Shown: one piece after another, positions 9,039-24,000 of the stretch
How positions within the stretch are numbered: the stretch's first letter is position 1
Layout: every line of letters starts with the position of its first letter
Source of the DNA: Clostridiales bacterium
GTDB taxonomy: Bacteria > Bacillota > Clostridia > Christensenellales > Pumilibacteraceae
Direction of reading: 5' to 3'
DNA length: 24,000 bases
NCBI GenBank assembly: GCA_015055625.1
Contig: SVHU01000006.1
Location: forward strand, 32,325-56,324
Position numbers and translations under genes: made by a program
Notes under the pieces: generated by a model
Seen by the model: the letters and a program-made list of their open reading frames with translations, nothing else
The model's database searches: none
Told to the model about the DNA's origin: nothing

Positions 9039-9083
9039 AGAAGAAATCTTCTTATTATGCTTGACAAAGAAGAAATCTTCTTA
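9039..9083. promoter_or_regulatory. two copies of a 16 bp palindrome-containing operator candidate (agaagaaatcttctta)
   Basis: Exact copies at 9039-9054 and 9068-9083, start-to-start spacing 29 bp. Each contains agaag-N4-cttct. Copy 2 fills the spacer of the plus-strand promoter. Copy 1 fills the spacer of the XRE promoter. Confidence 0.6.
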
Positions 9084-9089
9084 TATAAT
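9061..9089 (+). promoter_or_regulatory. perfect-consensus sigma-A promoter, divergent from the XRE gene
   Basis: TTGACA (9061-9066), exactly 17 nt spacer, TATAAT (9084-9089). Confidence 0.7.
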
Positions 9090-9095
9090 AGTAGT

Positions 9096-9314
9096 ACAAT
9101 TTGTTAAAACTGTAATAAATAGCAAAGAATTATTAAAGTTGTAGCAAAATGGTTTTAGCGAAAATATCTAAAAATACTATTCCTAAGACTTTTACAAAAG
9201 ACATTCCTATCCCTTTTAGAGAAGAGCAATCACGCCAAACCCTTGCGCGATAGCTCTTTTCTTTATTATATAATATAAAACACCTACGATTAAAATAAGT
9301 CGTAGGTGTTTTGT
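9096..9314 (+). ncRNA. candidate small transcript (~220 nt) between the consensus promoter and an intrinsic terminator; coding status unclear
   Basis: Bounded by the promoter at 9061-9089 and the hairpin at 9279-9310. The only ORF is 34 codons (9149-9253, MVLAKISKNTIPKTFTKDIPIPFREEQSRQTLAR) and it has no recognisable SD. Confidence 0.3.
9277..9314. terminator. bidirectional rho-independent terminator (ends the long minus-strand operon and the plus-strand small transcript)
   Basis: aacacctacg (9279-9288) / cgtaggtgtt (9301-9310) stem, with an A run before and a T run after. Confidence 0.8.
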
Positions 9315-11935: not shown

Positions 11936-12607
11936 TTATATCTCCTTAATATCAAAATATTTTTTTTGTAACGTCATAGCGAACGTGTTGTCCGCGTTAA
12001 GATTTTTGCTCACCTCTTGCGTACAAGAAGTAAACAGCAACGGAAGTCCTGTTTTTTCGCAAAGCTCTTTAGCTTTATTAAACGTGCTCTCAACGTCTTT
12101 TGCCGTGGTAAGGTTGCCAAGGTTAGAGTTGTTTACAACGCTTGTAAACTTGATTTTGCACGCGTCCTCTATCTCGCGCATAACCTCGATAGCAGAGTCT
12201 GCGTCGGGAGTTAAGGGACGGAAGAAGTTTGCAACAAATACCATTTCGTAGTTGTTTTCTTCCTTTATAAAGTCTGCGTATCTGCCTAAGGCGTACGCGC
12301 CTCTGTCGTCGCCACCTACATCTAAAACAGCGTAGTAACTCTTGTCCCAAACTAGCGCGTAAAGTTGTTGAGGAAGAGCGGGAAGATCAACGTTAGAATT
12401 TGCAAAAGCAGGGGAAATAAGCTCTATGCCCGCATCGCTTAGCTCTTTAGCGCTATCCTTTGTTCTAAAGTACGGATTGACGATATCCATATCTCCAATT
12501 TTTACAGGATAACCGTTTTGCTTAATACGTATTGCGTAATTTACGGCAATATTGGTTTTACCACTACCGTAATGACCGGCAAATATCGTTATGCGTTTAG
12601 GTTCCAT
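11936..12607 (-). CDS. P-loop NTPase of unknown role (SIMIBI/GPN-loop-like)
   Basis: Walker A motif GHYGSGKT near the N-terminus. The ATG at 12605-12607 overlaps the ilvE stop as TAATG. The track start at 12616 is a TTG. Confidence 0.75.
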   Translation of the reverse strand: MEPKRITIFAGHYGSGKTNIAVNYAIRIKQNGYPVKIGDMDIVNPYFRTKDSAKELSDAGIELISPAFANSNVDLPALPQQLYALVWDKSYYAVLDVGGDDRGAYALGRYADFIKEENNYEMVFVANFFRPLTPDADSAIEVMREIEDACKIKFTSVVNNSNLGNLTTAKDVESTFNKAKELCEKTGLPLLFTSCTQEVSKNLNADNTFAMTLQKKYFDIKEI

Positions 12608-13683
12608 TATTTGCAAACCTTTACGCTCCAGCCCTTATTCTCTTCGATCTTGCCCCACTGAATACCGGTAAGGTTGTCGTAGAGTTTTTGAGTAAGAGGT
12701 CCAATTTCGTTATTGGAAACAGTGTAGTCTTTTCCGTTGTAGAAAAGATGTCCGATGGGCGAAACAACCGCTGCAGTTCCTGTTCCCCAAGCTTCTTCCA
12801 ACGTTCCTTTTTCACAAGCTTCAAATAACTCGTCGATAGAGAAAAGTCTTTCTTCAACTTCGTATCCCCAATCCTTTAGTAGCTCGATGCAAGACTTTCT
12901 GGTAATACCGGGAAGAATAGATCCGCTAAGCATAGGAGTTACTATTTTGCCGTTTATCTTGAACATAACGTTCATAGCGCCAACTTCTTCGATGTACTTT
13001 CTTTCCACACCGTCAAGCCACAAAACCTGAGCATAGCCCTTTTCTTCAGCGCGCTGACCTGCTCTCATGCTTGCAGCGTAGTTACCACCGCACTTAGCAT
13101 ATCCAGTTCCGCCTCTAACTGCTCTTACGTCCTCGCTCTCGATAGCGATTTTAACGGGCTTAAGACCAGAAGCGTAGTAAGCGCCTACGGGTGAGCAAAT
13201 AATAACGAACATTGCGTTGTGTACTGCGTGTACGCCAAGATGGGGATCGTCACCGTAAATAAAGGGACGAATGTAAAGCGAAGTACCCTCGTTGTGGGGA
13301 ACCCAATCTTTTTCGAGCTCTACAAGCTTGTTAATGATGTCCAAAGCGCCCTCTTCATCAAGAAGGGGAAGACAAATTCTCTCCGCGCTCTGGTTAAGAC
13401 GCTTAACGTTCTCCATGGGACGGAAAAGTCTGATAGATCCGTCGACAGCTCTATAAGCTTTCATACCCTCGAAGATTTCCGCTCCGTAGTGGAAAACCGT
13501 GGAAGCAGGATGTGTTGGGATAGGTCCGAACGGAACGATTCTTCCGTCGTGCCAACCCTTATCCGAAGAATATTCCATAATGAACATGTGATCGGTAAAA
13601 ATTCTTCCAAATCCAAGCTTGCTCTCGTCAGCAGGCTTTGGCTGGGGATTAGTTGTTTTAGTAATAGTGATATCGTATTTCAT
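12607..13683 (-). CDS. ilvE: branched-chain amino acid aminotransferase (class IV, long form)
   Basis: 358 aa. FGRIFTDHMF, EGMKAYR and GTGTAAVVSPI motifs. GGAGG SD upstream. Confidence 0.9.
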   Translation of the reverse strand: MKYDITITKTTNPQPKPADESKLGFGRIFTDHMFIMEYSSDKGWHDGRIVPFGPIPTHPASTVFHYGAEIFEGMKAYRAVDGSIRLFRPMENVKRLNQSAERICLPLLDEEGALDIINKLVELEKDWVPHNEGTSLYIRPFIYGDDPHLGVHAVHNAMFVIICSPVGAYYASGLKPVKIAIESEDVRAVRGGTGYAKCGGNYAASMRAGQRAEEKGYAQVLWLDGVERKYIEEVGAMNVMFKINGKIVTPMLSGSILPGITRKSCIELLKDWGYEVEERLFSIDELFEACEKGTLEEAWGTGTAAVVSPIGHLFYNGKDYTVSNNEIGPLTQKLYDNLTGIQWGKIEENKGWSVKVCK

Positions 13684-13706: not shown

Positions 13707-16004
13707 TTATAACTTATTTCTCATAATCTTTCCGCTGGTGGTCTTGGGAAGTTCGTCGCGGAACACAACCACTCTGGGATATTTGTAAGGTGCGGTACGT
13801 TTCTTAACGTATTCCTGTACCTCTTTTTTGAGCGCTTCGGTAGGCTCTGTACCCTTAACAAGCACGATGCTTGCTTTTACAATCTGGCCTCTTACCTCGT
13901 CGGGCATTGCGGAAACTCCACACTCCAAAACGTAGGGAAGTTCCATAATAACGTTTTCGATTTCGAATGGTCCAATGCGGTATCCTGACGATTTTATGAC
14001 GTCGTCAACACGACCTACGTACCAATAATATCCGTCCTCGTCGCGCCAAGCGGTGTCGCCTGTGTGGTATAAGCCGTTACGTCTGACCTCGCTAGTCTTT
14101 TCCTCGTCCTCAAAGTAGCCGAGCGTAAGTCCGCAAGGGTTGCCTTTGCTTATATCAATAACAATTTCACCTACTTCGCCGACTGCAACGGGTTTGTCAT
14201 CACTGTTTACAAGCGAAATGTTATAAAGCGGGACGGGTTTACCCATAGAGCCAATCTTGGTTTTTGTTCCAAAAAGGTTAGCAAGCGCAACCGTGGTTTC
14301 GGTTTGACCAAATCCTTCCATAATTTGAAGTCCGGTAGCCTTTTCAAACTGACGGAAAACTTCGGGGTTAAGCGCTTCGCCTGCTGTGGTCATATGTTCT
14401 ATGGAAGATAGGTCAAAGTTGGAAAGGTCTTGTTTTATCATCATACGAAGCATTGTGGGTGGAGCGCAGAAAGTAGTAATATGATGCTTTGCAAACATGG
14501 GCATAATATCGTTTGCGTCAAACCTGTCAAAGTCGTACACGAATATGGGCGCTTCGCAAAGCCACTGACCGTATATCTTACCCCAGGCAGCTTTTGCCCA
14601 ACCTGTGTCGGAAATGGAAAGGTGTAATCCATCGGGGTTTACGCAATGCCAATACTTTGCGGTAACAAAATGTCCAAGAGGATATTTGTAGTTGTGCATA
14701 GCAACCTTGGGATTGCCCGTTGTTCCCGACGTAAAGTACATAAGCATCAAATCGTTGCCACAGGGAGAGTCTTCCGTTCTTTCGAACTTGCTGGAATATA
14801 AAGTATATTCTTCGTCAAAGTTTCTCCAGCCCTTTTTTTCGCCGTTTACGATAATTTTATGTTCAAGACAGGGAGCAAACTCGCTTGCCTTTTCTACCTC
14901 GTCCGAAACGTCGCCGTCCGCTGTACAAAGAATCATTTTTACGCCAGCTTTATTAAGACGGTATGTTATATCATGCTCTTTAAGCTGATTGGTAGCTGGA
15001 ATTGCAATAGCGCCTATCTTGTGAAGAGCGACCATAGCAAACCAGAACTGATAATGGCGCTTTAGGATAAGCATAACCTTGTCGCCCTTTTTTATACCTA
15101 AAGACTTAAAGTAGTTAGCGGTTTTTGCCGACATTTTCTTTATATCGGTAAATGTAAATCTTCTTTCCGTCTTGTCCTTAGCAATATGCAAAAGAGCAAG
15201 CTTGTCGGGATGAGCGGTTGCCATTGCGTCGATTACGTCAAAGCCGAAGTTGAACGTATTTTCGTTTTCAAAAGCGATCTTTTCAAGCTGACCGTTTTCG
15301 TTTTCGGTAGGAATAATAAACTTATTCCAAACGCGCTTAGGCTCGGGCTTTTTGTTTTGCTTTCTAACCGTGATAAATTCTCTTGCTCCGCCGTGAACGA
15401 GCTTAGAGATAGGCTCGGACGCAGGGTTAAGTACGATTGCGTAGAAGATACAGTCTGCTCCGCCTGTTGCAATCATTCCGTGAGGGGTGGAGGAGTCGTA
15501 GTAAATACTATCACCTTCGCCCAAGATTTCAACGTGGTCACCAACTTGCACTTTAAGCGTGCCCTTAACAACGATATCACATTCCTGACCTTCATGGGTA
15601 GTAAGCTCGATGTCCGCGTTTTGCGCGTTTTCGTCATAGTCGGAAATAACGTACAAGGGTTCTGCAATACGATTTTTAAAAGCAGATGCTAAGTTAAAAT
15701 ACGTCATACCGTGCGCTTTCTGAATTTGTTGTCCCTCACCCTTTCTTGTAACGGTATAGCCTGCAAGACGAGGGCCTGTTCCTTCGATAATTTCGGTAAC
15801 GTCTACGTTAAGCGCAAGAGCGCAACGGTACAAAAACGCGAAGTTAAGGTCGGATTTTCCGCTTTCGCAGTCTAGGTATTCCTGTAAAGTTACTCCAGTC
15901 TTTGTCGCCATATCCATTGTCGTAAGACCGATAATTTCACGCAAAGTCTTAATTCTTTGCGCCATTTCCTGAATCTTAAATTCAAGACCTGTTGCTGTTT
16001 GCAT
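13707..16004 (-). CDS. fusion protein: XRE HTH + cupin domain + medium-chain AMP-forming acyl-CoA synthetase (paralogue A)
   Basis: 765 aa from the ATG at 16004 (MQTATGLEF...), with AAGGAGG 6 nt upstream. The track's extra 55 N-terminal codons run through the T-box terminator. It has an HTH (TMDMATKTGVTLQEYLDCESGKSDL) and a cupin (GTLKVQVGDHVEILGEGDSIYYDSSTPHGM). The adenylation motifs are FTSGTTGNPK, SDTGWAKAAW, YHTGD, GRVDDVIKSSGYRIGPFEIE and PKTTSGKIMR. Confidence 0.9.
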   Translation of the reverse strand: MQTATGLEFKIQEMAQRIKTLREIIGLTTMDMATKTGVTLQEYLDCESGKSDLNFAFLYRCALALNVDVTEIIEGTGPRLAGYTVTRKGEGQQIQKAHGMTYFNLASAFKNRIAEPLYVISDYDENAQNADIELTTHEGQECDIVVKGTLKVQVGDHVEILGEGDSIYYDSSTPHGMIATGGADCIFYAIVLNPASEPISKLVHGGAREFITVRKQNKKPEPKRVWNKFIIPTENENGQLEKIAFENENTFNFGFDVIDAMATAHPDKLALLHIAKDKTERRFTFTDIKKMSAKTANYFKSLGIKKGDKVMLILKRHYQFWFAMVALHKIGAIAIPATNQLKEHDITYRLNKAGVKMILCTADGDVSDEVEKASEFAPCLEHKIIVNGEKKGWRNFDEEYTLYSSKFERTEDSPCGNDLMLMYFTSGTTGNPKVAMHNYKYPLGHFVTAKYWHCVNPDGLHLSISDTGWAKAAWGKIYGQWLCEAPIFVYDFDRFDANDIMPMFAKHHITTFCAPPTMLRMMIKQDLSNFDLSSIEHMTTAGEALNPEVFRQFEKATGLQIMEGFGQTETTVALANLFGTKTKIGSMGKPVPLYNISLVNSDDKPVAVGEVGEIVIDISKGNPCGLTLGYFEDEEKTSEVRRNGLYHTGDTAWRDEDGYYWYVGRVDDVIKSSGYRIGPFEIENVIMELPYVLECGVSAMPDEVRGQIVKASIVLVKGTEPTEALKKEVQEYVKKRTAPYKYPRVVVFRDELPKTTSGKIMRNKL

Positions 16005-16030: not shown

Positions 16031-16308
16031 TATAAAAACTCGCCCCAAACGATAAAATCCTTTGAGACGAGTAAAATTCTTTATACCCGCGGTACCACTC
16101 AAATTGTACGCTTATTTTGCGTACCACTTTCAGGCTCTGACAAGCCGTATGCCTTAACGCAGCAATCACGAGGAAGTTCTACTTAAAAACTCTTTCTTCT
16201 TCCCTGCTCTGAAGTTACATCAAACGCTTTTACGTGGCGGTTTTCACCCTGTTCCGCCTCTCTGTAACGCAATTTTACGCGGTTGAACTCTTCGTCTATG
16301 CATTTGTA
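16031..16308 (-). promoter_or_regulatory. T-box riboswitch leader, putative specifier GUA (Val)
   Basis: On the minus strand I see these elements:
- Stem I with an AGAGAG bulge and a GGGTGAAAA distal loop.
- An F-box-like CGTGATTGCTGCGTTA.
- A stem III hairpin gtacgc...gcgtac.
- The T-box sequence AATTTGAGTGGTACCGCGGG (16086-16105).
- A terminator actcgtctcaaa/tttggggcgagt (16038-16072) followed by TTTTT.
The candidate specifier GUA is at 16216-16218, followed by A and then the CUUC lower stem. Confidence 0.85.
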
Positions 16309-16314
16309 CAAGTG

Positions 16315-16344
16315 ATTATAGCATACTAAGTGAAATCTTGTCAA
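16315..16344 (-). promoter_or_regulatory. promoter of T-box leader A
   Basis: Minus strand TTGACA (16339-16344), 18 nt spacer, TGcTATAAT (-10 at 16315-16320). Confidence 0.7.
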
Positions 16345-19281: not shown

Positions 19282-19294
19282 ACATAACCACCTT

Positions 19295-19368
19295 CGTGGA
19301 ATTCCATACAGGTATTCCACGAAAATAGTATAAGAATTTTAAAAATTATTATCTCGTGGAGTTCCACG
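19295..19368. promoter_or_regulatory. operator candidates built on GTGGAA/TTCCAC half-sites
   Basis: IR1 is cgtggaat-N11-attccacg (19295-19321) and contains tggaattcca. IR2 is cgtgga-gt-tccacg (19355-19368). Both lie in the divergent intergenic region between the XRE-like gene and the SMP-30-family gene. Confidence 0.5.
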
Positions 19369-19396
19369 ATTGTTGACATTGTAGCGTGTTTTTTTG

Positions 19397-22863: not shown

Positions 22864-24000
22864 TTAGTTTTCCTCGTATACGATTTTGTTAAGAGCGTTT
22901 ATATATGCTCTGATGCACGCGCCGATAACGTCTGTGGATACACCGCTGCCCGAATACAGCTTGCCGTTTGCGATAAGACGAATAAGCGAAGAAGCCGCAG
23001 CCTCTCTACCCTTTGTAATAGACTGAATCTGGAAGTCGTCAAGTTCGTAGTGATGACCGATAATTTGCTCGATTGCATGAAAAGCTGCGTCAACAGGACC
23101 GTCCCCTGCACTTACGCCAATAAGGTTCTCGCCATCCTTTTCCAAGGTTATGCTTGCAGTTGCGGTAATAATGTTTCCGCTGTTTACAACGTAGTTTACG
23201 AGATGGAAAGTTGAGGGAACTTGCATTGCGGTACTTGCTACTATTGCATCAAGTTCACGTGTTGCAATATTTCCCTTTCTTTCGCTTACGCGCTTAAACT
23301 CTTCATAAACTTTGCCGTTATCCTCGTCCGAAAGCTCGTAGCCGAGTTCTTTGATCTTTTCGATAATAACGGAAAGAGAAGCGGATGCGTCAATGGTAGA
23401 ACCTGCGTCTTTATTGGGCTTAGATGTAGGCTCGTTGTCCGAGATAGTAGATACCGTATTGTGGATAGACGTACAATCGAGGTTGCAATCAAACTGAATT
23501 TCGTCGCCCTTTGCTCTCATAAGGTCAGCAAATTTGTCTGGGCGCATAACGTCGCCGTCGGTTGCGGTCTTAACGCCAATCGCGCCGTTTTCTAAAGATG
23601 CTACCGCGCAAGCACAAGCAAGAGAAATCTTGTCTGAGGTTGCTACGTATACTTTTACTTCAGGAGCAACGCTACATACTTCTTTTATAAGCGCACCCAT
23701 TTTGCAAGGGAATGCAATTCCTGCATCGTCGCATACGGTAATCTCGGTTGCCCCATTTTCAATAGCAACTTTTGCGCACTGAGCAACAAAACCGTTTTCA
23801 GCTCTCGTTGCGTCTGTTGCAACAAATTCTACCGTATAGCCCGTTTCACTAGCTTTTTTAGTGATAGATGCAATTTTTTCCAGCATCTTAGGTGCTTTTA
23901 AGTGGTAGGTGTACTCCATAACCACGGTGGACGTGGGCATAATAACCTGCAAAACTGCGTTTTCGGCATTCTTTGCCATTTCGATTGCAGCGGTAAAGGA
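22864..24000 (-). CDS. 2-isopropylmalate synthase-like protein with a degenerate catalytic domain and an intact LeuA_dimer regulatory domain; 5' end outside the window
   Basis: The frame stays open to 24000. The C-terminus matches the LeuA allosteric domain (GDGPVDAAFHAIEQI ... GSGVSTDVIGACIRAYINALNKI). The upstream HMGL-like part aligns to LeuA, but DTVGY is DDAGI and the HxH(N/D)D metal motif is ATSDK. The stop lies 2 nt from the start of the next gene. Confidence 0.75.
   Translation of the reverse strand, partial: SFTAAIEMAKNAENAVLQVIMPTSTVVMEYTYHLKAPKMLEKIASITKKASETGYTVEFVATDATRAENGFVAQCAKVAIENGATEITVCDDAGIAFPCKMGALIKEVCSVAPEVKVYVATSDKISLACACAVASLENGAIGVKTATDGDVMRPDKFADLMRAKGDEIQFDCNLDCTSIHNTVSTISDNEPTSKPNKDAGSTIDASASLSVIIEKIKELGYELSDEDNGKVYEEFKRVSERKGNIATRELDAIVASTAMQVPSTFHLVNYVVNSGNIITATASITLEKDGENLIGVSAGDGPVDAAFHAIEQIIGHHYELDDFQIQSITKGREAAASSLIRLIANGKLYSGSGVSTDVIGACIRAYINALNKIVYEEN

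Follow-up and report, generated by a model that had tools for sequence, protein, structure and literature searches.

A T-box leader with a valine specifier and the probable isobutyrate-to-valine salvage operon downstream of it in a Clostridiales bacterium

The window (the whole 24,000-nt stretch of DNA that was analysed) carries two T-box leaders in Rfam release 15, both on the minus strand: leader A (16307-16060) and leader B (18949-18713). Apart from these two, no T-box and no other Rfam family was found in the window at E-values up to 0.1. Leader A is followed by genes for an acyl-CoA synthetase (ACS-A), a branched-chain amino acid aminotransferase (IlvE), a P-loop protein, and the delta, alpha, beta and gamma subunits of an oxidoreductase of the OFOR type (Table 1). 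The start of ACS-A is the ATG at 16004, which comes after an AAGGAGG Shine-Dalgarno sequence (16017-16011), and not the GTG of the ORF list; its homologues are 765 aa long. The P-loop protein weakly matches NUBPL, a family of iron-transfer NTPases. A second synthetase, ACS-B, lies between leader B and leader A.

Table 1. Features of leader A, its operon and the sister units, in window coordinates
Feature	Coordinates	Strand	Basis or remark
Sigma-70 promoter A, extended -10	16344-16315	-	TTGACA 16344-16339, 18-nt spacer, TGcTATAAT 16323-16315; 12/12 plus TG
Stem I	16301..16206	-	Rfam alignment and Stem I model R1, 58.9 bits
Stem I base	G16301-C16300 with G16207-C16206	-	Rfam alignment
K-turn-like AUAGAC	16299-16294	-	Within Stem I base
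Stem I lower stem	GAAG 16293-16290 with CUUC 16214-16211	-	Rfam alignment
AGAGA bulge	16263-16259	-	Stem I
Distal hairpin GGCGG-AACAGGGUGAAAA-CCGCC	16258-16236	-	Stem I; contains GGUGAAAA
Specifier triplet GUA (Val)	16218..16216	-	Followed by A16215 and lower-stem CUUC 16214-16211
Stem II	about 16203-16172	-	Aligned by RF00230 model
Stem IIA/B / F-box region CGUGAUUGCUGCGUUA	16170-16155	-	Alignment to model consensus
Stem III hairpin	16124-16106	-	Rfam alignment
T-box sequence AAUUUGAGUGGUACCGCGGG	16105-16086	-	Rfam alignment
T-box sequence and antiterminator	16105..16061	-	Fold -10.3 kcal/mol, canonical 7-nt bulge
Intrinsic terminator	16072..16033	-	12-bp stem 16072-16061 with 16049-16038, then U run
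ACS-A, 765 aa	16004-13707 (with Shine-Dalgarno from 16017)	-	XRE-type HTH, cupin and AMP-forming acyl-CoA synthetase (Pfam)
IlvE, branched-chain amino acid aminotransferase	13683..12607	-	NF009897, 478.6 bits (equivalog cutoff 307)
ParA/CbiA-like P-loop protein	12616..11936	-	Weak Pfam matches
OFOR delta, 2x[4Fe-4S] ferredoxin, 68 aa	11931..11725	-	Family search
OFOR alpha, VorB family	11716-10655	-	NF005507, 565.6 bits (cutoff 399)
OFOR beta, TPP-binding	10652-9900	-	Pfam
OFOR gamma, POR gamma	9896-9366	-	Pfam
Operon-end intrinsic terminator	9312..9277	-	-16.8 kcal/mol, z -6.26
Sister unit B: promoter	18994-18966	-	12/12
Sister unit B: T-box leader B	18949-18713	-	103.6 bits; specifier AUC (Ile)
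ACS-B, paralogue of ACS-A	18644-16374	-	64% identity; immediately upstream of leader A
TIM-barrel/AMP-ligase fusion, 818 aa	22861-20405	-	Xylose-isomerase-like TIM barrel (AP_endonuc_2) and AMP-binding acyl-CoA ligase
T-box, Leu (CUC)	L081 8292-8529 (source contig, just past window position 24000)	- (window)	117.1 bits

Leader A aligns to the whole of the Rfam T-box family RF00230 (16307..16060, model positions 1-219) with 99.0 bits and an E-value of 5.1e-21, above the gathering score of 93 bits and far beyond chance. A first-pass annotation, made from the sequence by eye, had proposed an AG bulge, a distal hairpin, an F-box-like region, a stem III and a match to the T-box consensus; every one of these lies on the minus strand where it had been placed, and the model also aligns a Stem II that was not in that list. 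The proposed K-turn-like base is at its place too, but its K-turn reads AGA, not the UGA of the consensus and the orthologues, the region being AUAGAC...AGAGC in leader A and UGAC...GAGC in the orthologues. The S-turn 'GAA' ahead of the codon is GAU in leader A and missing from most orthologues. The tRNA-elbow platform is present as AGAGA plus GGUGAAA, in columns that are invariant or nearly so (alignment A2), the distal helix of Stem I shows many compensatory changes, and GAGTGGTACCGCG is kept in nearly all orthologous leaders. Single-sequence minimum free energy folding, of the leader or of Stem I alone, did not yield the canonical Stem I, and RNAalifold on a MAFFT alignment recovered the distal helix only. 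Because folding missed Stem I, we based the structure call on explicit pair counts, on a custom model of stated structure and on the alignment to RF00230. Save for its degenerate K-turn and S-turn motifs, leader A is an ordinary T-box leader, for which a response to tRNA is predicted.

The extended -10 promoter that had been proposed upstream of the leader was found, with a full 12/12 match and the TG. Among the orthologous leaders, 65/75 have a match of at least 11/12 about 18 nt upstream of Stem I, and 11/12 was reached in only 3/400 control windows. At the other end of the leader, strand 16072-16061 is common to two folds, as 5′ arm of the terminator and 3′ arm of the antiterminator. The terminator (-19.6 kcal/mol, z -6.65; 0/200 shuffles equally stable) has the 12-bp stem and U run of the first-pass annotation, but the Shine-Dalgarno sequence begins about 20 nt past the end of the stem, not 27. 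The antiterminator has the bulge UGGUACC at 16097-16091, whose UGGU (16097-16094) would pair with the tRNA 3′ end ACCA. This UGGU is compatible with any A73 tRNA and does not discriminate Val from Ile or Leu.

The Rfam alignment of the specifier region reads ...GCGUUU-GAU-GUA-A-CUUC-AGAGC, with GUA in the specifier position and no other triplet placed there. GUA sits in the '+0' specifier frame as used by TBDB (PMC7778990). For comparison we used 80 genome loci with relatives of the downstream synthetase, the best-scoring relatives out of at least 593 related stretches in GTDB species representatives; all belong to uncultured Clostridia of the gut or the rumen, under labels such as Acutalibacteraceae, Oscillospiraceae and Christensenellaceae. 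A T-box core motif was seen upstream of nearly every ACS orthologue in these loci. With the gathering threshold, Rfam recovered a T-box in only 1/7 related loci, because the RF00230 threshold is high; with an E-value threshold, the sampled related loci gave full-length T-boxes of 68-85 bits, and three of them aligned with GUC or GUG at the specifier position.

A Stem I covariance model (R1), built from 28 leaders with its structure stated, found 139 Stem I copies, and the codons that it assigns divide by the gene downstream. The 77 leaders before ACS-A orthologues carry GUA (71), GUC (5) or GUG (1), all Val; all 48 before ACS-B orthologues carry AUC (Ile); and the 14 before leuA-type genes carry CUC (13) or CUG (1), both Leu. 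TBDB usage of these triplets is 0.61 (GUA), 0.29 (GUC) and 0.02 (GUG) of Val, 0.99 for AUC and 0.77 for CUC. The nucleotide after the Val codon is G or A in 77/77 ACS-A leaders; after AUC in ACS-B leaders it is A in 27 and C in 21, often no purine. The 4-bp lower stem that frames the codon is 99.6% paired over the 139 leaders, with compensatory changes at 4/4 pairs, and the whole tested Stem I structure has 98% of its cells paired, against 30-56% in control structures whose partners were slid by 1-3 columns; the percentages come from a model-fitted alignment, which favours the structure, but the result for the slid controls, and the different types of pair that occur, still speak for a real framing stem. 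The GUA call, which had been offered as provisional, is thereby supported, with a Val codon in every orthologous leader and a covarying stem around it.

If the specifier lay in another frame, the leader would respond to a different tRNA, and the -1 frame is indeed also well conserved, with UGU (Cys) in 72/77 ACS-A leaders. The remaining five have CGU (Arg) there; read in the +0 frame, 77/77 give Val, and the third-base variation among A, C and G is synonymous in the +0 frame only. UGU makes up 0% of the Cys T-boxes in TBDB (usage 0.00), and the gene content belongs to branched-chain metabolism, not to sulfur. Bacterial tRNA-Cys normally has U73, which would not pair with UGGU. The +1 frame gives stop codons, UAG or UAA, in 71 of the leaders. 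One amino acid is specified throughout in the +0 frame only; the -1 and +1 frames, neither of them amino-acid consistent, were rejected, and we rate a specifier outside the +0 frame as exceedingly improbable. Leader A thus most likely senses uncharged tRNA-Val, to judge from codon, frame and covariation. A gene for tRNA-Val, of which the anticodon UAC and the discriminator A73 are predicted, turned up neither in the window nor in the source contig stretch, nor in 60 related loci.

The genes that the first-pass annotation had put under this leader, namely ACS-A, ilvE and the OFOR genes, do follow it in line. From ACS-A through OFOR gamma the intergenic gaps are at most 23 nt, or the genes overlap, and between 16033 and 9312 there is no strong terminator, only weak consensus matches, before the one that ends the operon. 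Control of the distal genes, ilvE to OFOR gamma, by leader A is what this layout suggests. It is also conceivable that the Val-specific T-box controls ACS-A only, ilvE and the OFOR genes being uncoupled from it, for instance by relying mostly on a promoter inside the operon. A promoter-like site within ACS-A (14530-14503, 11/12 match) could express them independently, though it is a mere consensus match in coding sequence. Among the 70 loci with enough downstream sequence to be counted, in 17 the Val T-box/ACS-A unit is on its own, with no OFOR gene or ilvE in the fetched flank, and in 5 further loci a gap ahead of ilvE, or other genes, intervene; yet in 48/70 the adjacency is kept, ACS-A being followed directly by the P-loop gene or ilvE, together with OFOR genes. 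Given this conservation, the short gaps and the lack of a convincing terminator before 9312-9277, control of ACS-A only seems unlikely to us.

In most loci the P-loop gene keeps its place after ACS-A or ilvE and ahead of the OFOR genes, directly 3′ of ACS-A in 42, and its product may be a factor for the Fe-S clusters or the assembly of the oxidoreductase. In one of the loci with a gap between ACS-A and ilvE (L058, 12289-13101) the gap holds a 270-aa ORF that looks carbon-nitrogen hydrolase-like by eye, and three others (L053, L066, L067) have gaps of about 820 nt, similar in size. An omega-amidase in the L058 gap would fit glutamine-dependent transamination.

Taken together, 16344-16033 (minus strand) is, we think, quite probably a promoter and transcription-attenuating Val T-box that gates an isobutyrate-to-valine salvage operon. 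When valine is scarce, tRNA-Val would be left uncharged and would dock on Stem I, its anticodon on GUA and its elbow on the platform of AG bulge and distal loop, while its free ACCA end would pair with the bulged UGGU. The weaker antiterminator (-10.3 kcal/mol) would thus be stabilised against the terminator (-19.6 kcal/mol) and RNA polymerase would read through, into a transcript that most likely spans ACS-A, ilvE, the P-loop gene and the OFOR delta, alpha, beta and gamma genes. ACS-A would convert isobutyrate to isobutyryl-CoA in an ATP-dependent step, the VorB-type OFOR would convert isobutyryl-CoA to 2-oxoisovalerate by reductive carboxylation (with reduced ferredoxin and CO2), and IlvE would convert 2-oxoisovalerate to valine by transamination. 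Salvage induced by valine starvation is then the likely function of the operon, with isobutyrate as the predicted substrate of ACS-A, both judged from sequence. We infer the anabolic direction because of the starvation-sensing logic and because an AMP-forming ligase drives acid activation.

The curated family closest to both synthetases is MbcS (NF047394), the best NCBIfam match of ACS-A with 431.9 bits and of ACS-B with 451.0 bits, both below the equivalog cutoff of 850; the two proteins would accordingly be described as MbcS-like, not as members of MbcS. MbcS is known for priming branched-chain fatty acid synthesis, and VOR enzymes, like other 2-oxoacid:ferredoxin oxidoreductases, are reversible. 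An operon that does not make valine can therefore be imagined, in which the acyl-CoA goes to branched-chain fatty acid synthesis, or the OFOR and IlvE run catabolically. Induction by uncharged tRNA-Val, however, suits valine supply, not breakdown or lipid priming; AMP-forming ligases drive the activation of acids, not their release; and the parallel T-boxes, for Ile on the paralogue and for Leu on leuA, suggest a module that supplies amino acids. On balance such an operon appears improbable, and we keep to valine salvage.

Leader A resembles the Val T-boxes known from valS leaders of Firmicutes in its full architecture (Stem I, specifier loop, elbow platform, Stem II, IIA/B, Stem III, UGGN bulge and competing terminator) and in GUA, the commonest Val specifier in TBDB. 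It differs from them in the degenerate K-turn and S-turn and in what it controls, which is an acyl-CoA synthetase, IlvE and VOR operon where valS leaders control an aminoacyl-tRNA synthetase. The ilv-leu operon of Bacillus subtilis, which is controlled by a Leu T-box alone, encodes the de novo route from pyruvate (the acetolactate pathway). Both operons couple the charging of a branched-chain tRNA to branched-chain amino acid supply, and in both the tRNA of one amino acid gates enzymes common to several; unlike ilv-leu, the operon of leader A is predicted to salvage short branched acids by way of a CoA ligase and a carboxylating oxidoreductase that depends on ferredoxin.

The Val and Ile T-boxes predict isobutyrate and 2-methylbutyrate as the acids to be activated, and it is exactly these two that MbcS, the methylbutyryl-CoA synthetase of Staphylococcus aureus, activates selectively (PMC10026030). 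Besides their scores of 432-451 bits against a cutoff of 850, ACS-A and ACS-B differ from MbcS in an extra N-terminal HTH and cupin module of about 240 aa; MbcS itself serves fatty-acid priming and has no reported T-box control. The oxidoreductase shares with the VOR (2-ketoisovalerate:ferredoxin oxidoreductase) of anaerobes and archaea the four subunits delta, alpha, beta and gamma, with an alpha subunit above the VorB cutoff; it differs in the extra conserved P-loop gene ahead of the subunit genes, and its substrate range and direction are predicted.

Rumen fibre-degrading anaerobes have long been described as making valine from isobutyrate, isoleucine from 2-methylbutyrate and leucine from isovalerate by reductive carboxylation; the carboxylation of isovalerate to leucine is cited elsewhere (PMC7356843). 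Three T-boxes, for Leu, Ile and Val, lie at the locus described here. ACS-B, under the Ile leader, is predicted to activate 2-methylbutyrate. No terminator was found between ACS-B and leader A, so that a transcript started at promoter B would run into the Val-gated terminator; valine status alone thus seems to decide the expression of the shared IlvE and VOR. The Leu T-box lies upstream of leuA, which is cut by the window end, and 3 nt past leuA begins the gene for the TIM-barrel/AMP-ligase fusion, which is presumably under the Leu T-box as well; an isovalerate-related role for this fusion would be a guess. In many related loci a Leu T-box with the leuA/ligase pair stands downstream of ilvE.

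All three classes of leader have a common promoter in L001-L080, TTGACAA, a 17-nt spacer and TGTGnTATAAT with an A/T-rich upstream part, in a region of 70-100 nt before Stem I. It is unusually strong, and strong promoters fit control by attenuation. The N-terminal 240 aa or so of ACS-A and ACS-B, an XRE-type HTH with a cupin, amount to a putative DNA-binding sensor fused to the enzyme. This HTH-cupin-synthetase fusion is kept in thousands of database proteins, and the only solved structures matched by the first 215 aa are generic HTH proteins of the XRE/434-repressor type. No conserved operator for the HTH-cupin module was found around the promoters of 130 leaders; only the -35, the extended -10 and the A/T-rich upstream part are conserved.

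A broader reading, which we put forward tentatively and with more doubt than confidence, is that the Leu unit (leuA and ligase fusion), the Ile unit (ACS-B) and the Val unit (ACS-A, IlvE and VOR) form a three-way tRNA-gated module that might explain genetically why, as has long been known, rumen and gut Clostridia depend on branched-chain volatile fatty acids. The specifier would then reveal the acid preference of each synthetase, and the HTH-cupin module might supply a second input, such as acid availability, making an AND gate of starvation and precursor.

The riboswitch mechanism itself is known and brings no surprise; the regulon, a salvage gene set under a T-box, seems unreported. Our literature search found no report that links a T-box, or specific genes, to the branched-acid salvage route, and an earlier description is possible. 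The main text of the 2008 survey by Wels et al. has no mention of oxidoreductase, acyl-CoA or ilvE. Here the T-box specifiers label the genes from within: each predicts the amino acid that its acyl-CoA synthetase paralogue serves, and together they mark a cluster conserved in most of the 80 uncultured Clostridia loci as an amino-acid supply pathway. They thereby provide gene-level hypotheses for the classical pathway from branched-chain volatile fatty acids to amino acids in gut and rumen Clostridia, with relevance to ruminant nutrition, where these acids serve as supplements. Alongside synthetases, transporters and de novo biosynthesis, the range of T-box operons would now include a salvage pathway.

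Two smaller features of the minus strand were seen to either side of the operon. At 19290-19375, two palindromes CGTGGAA(n)TTCCACG stand ahead of a small ORF (19280-19048) for an HTH-like protein of about 77 aa, which, lying between the SGL gene and T-box B, has the look of a small repressor that regulates itself. At 9040-9100, AAGAAGATTTCTTCT occurs twice, overlapping the TTGTCA...TATAAT promoter of a small XRE-type HTH gene (about 9025-8825), and this repeat is probably an autoregulatory operator.
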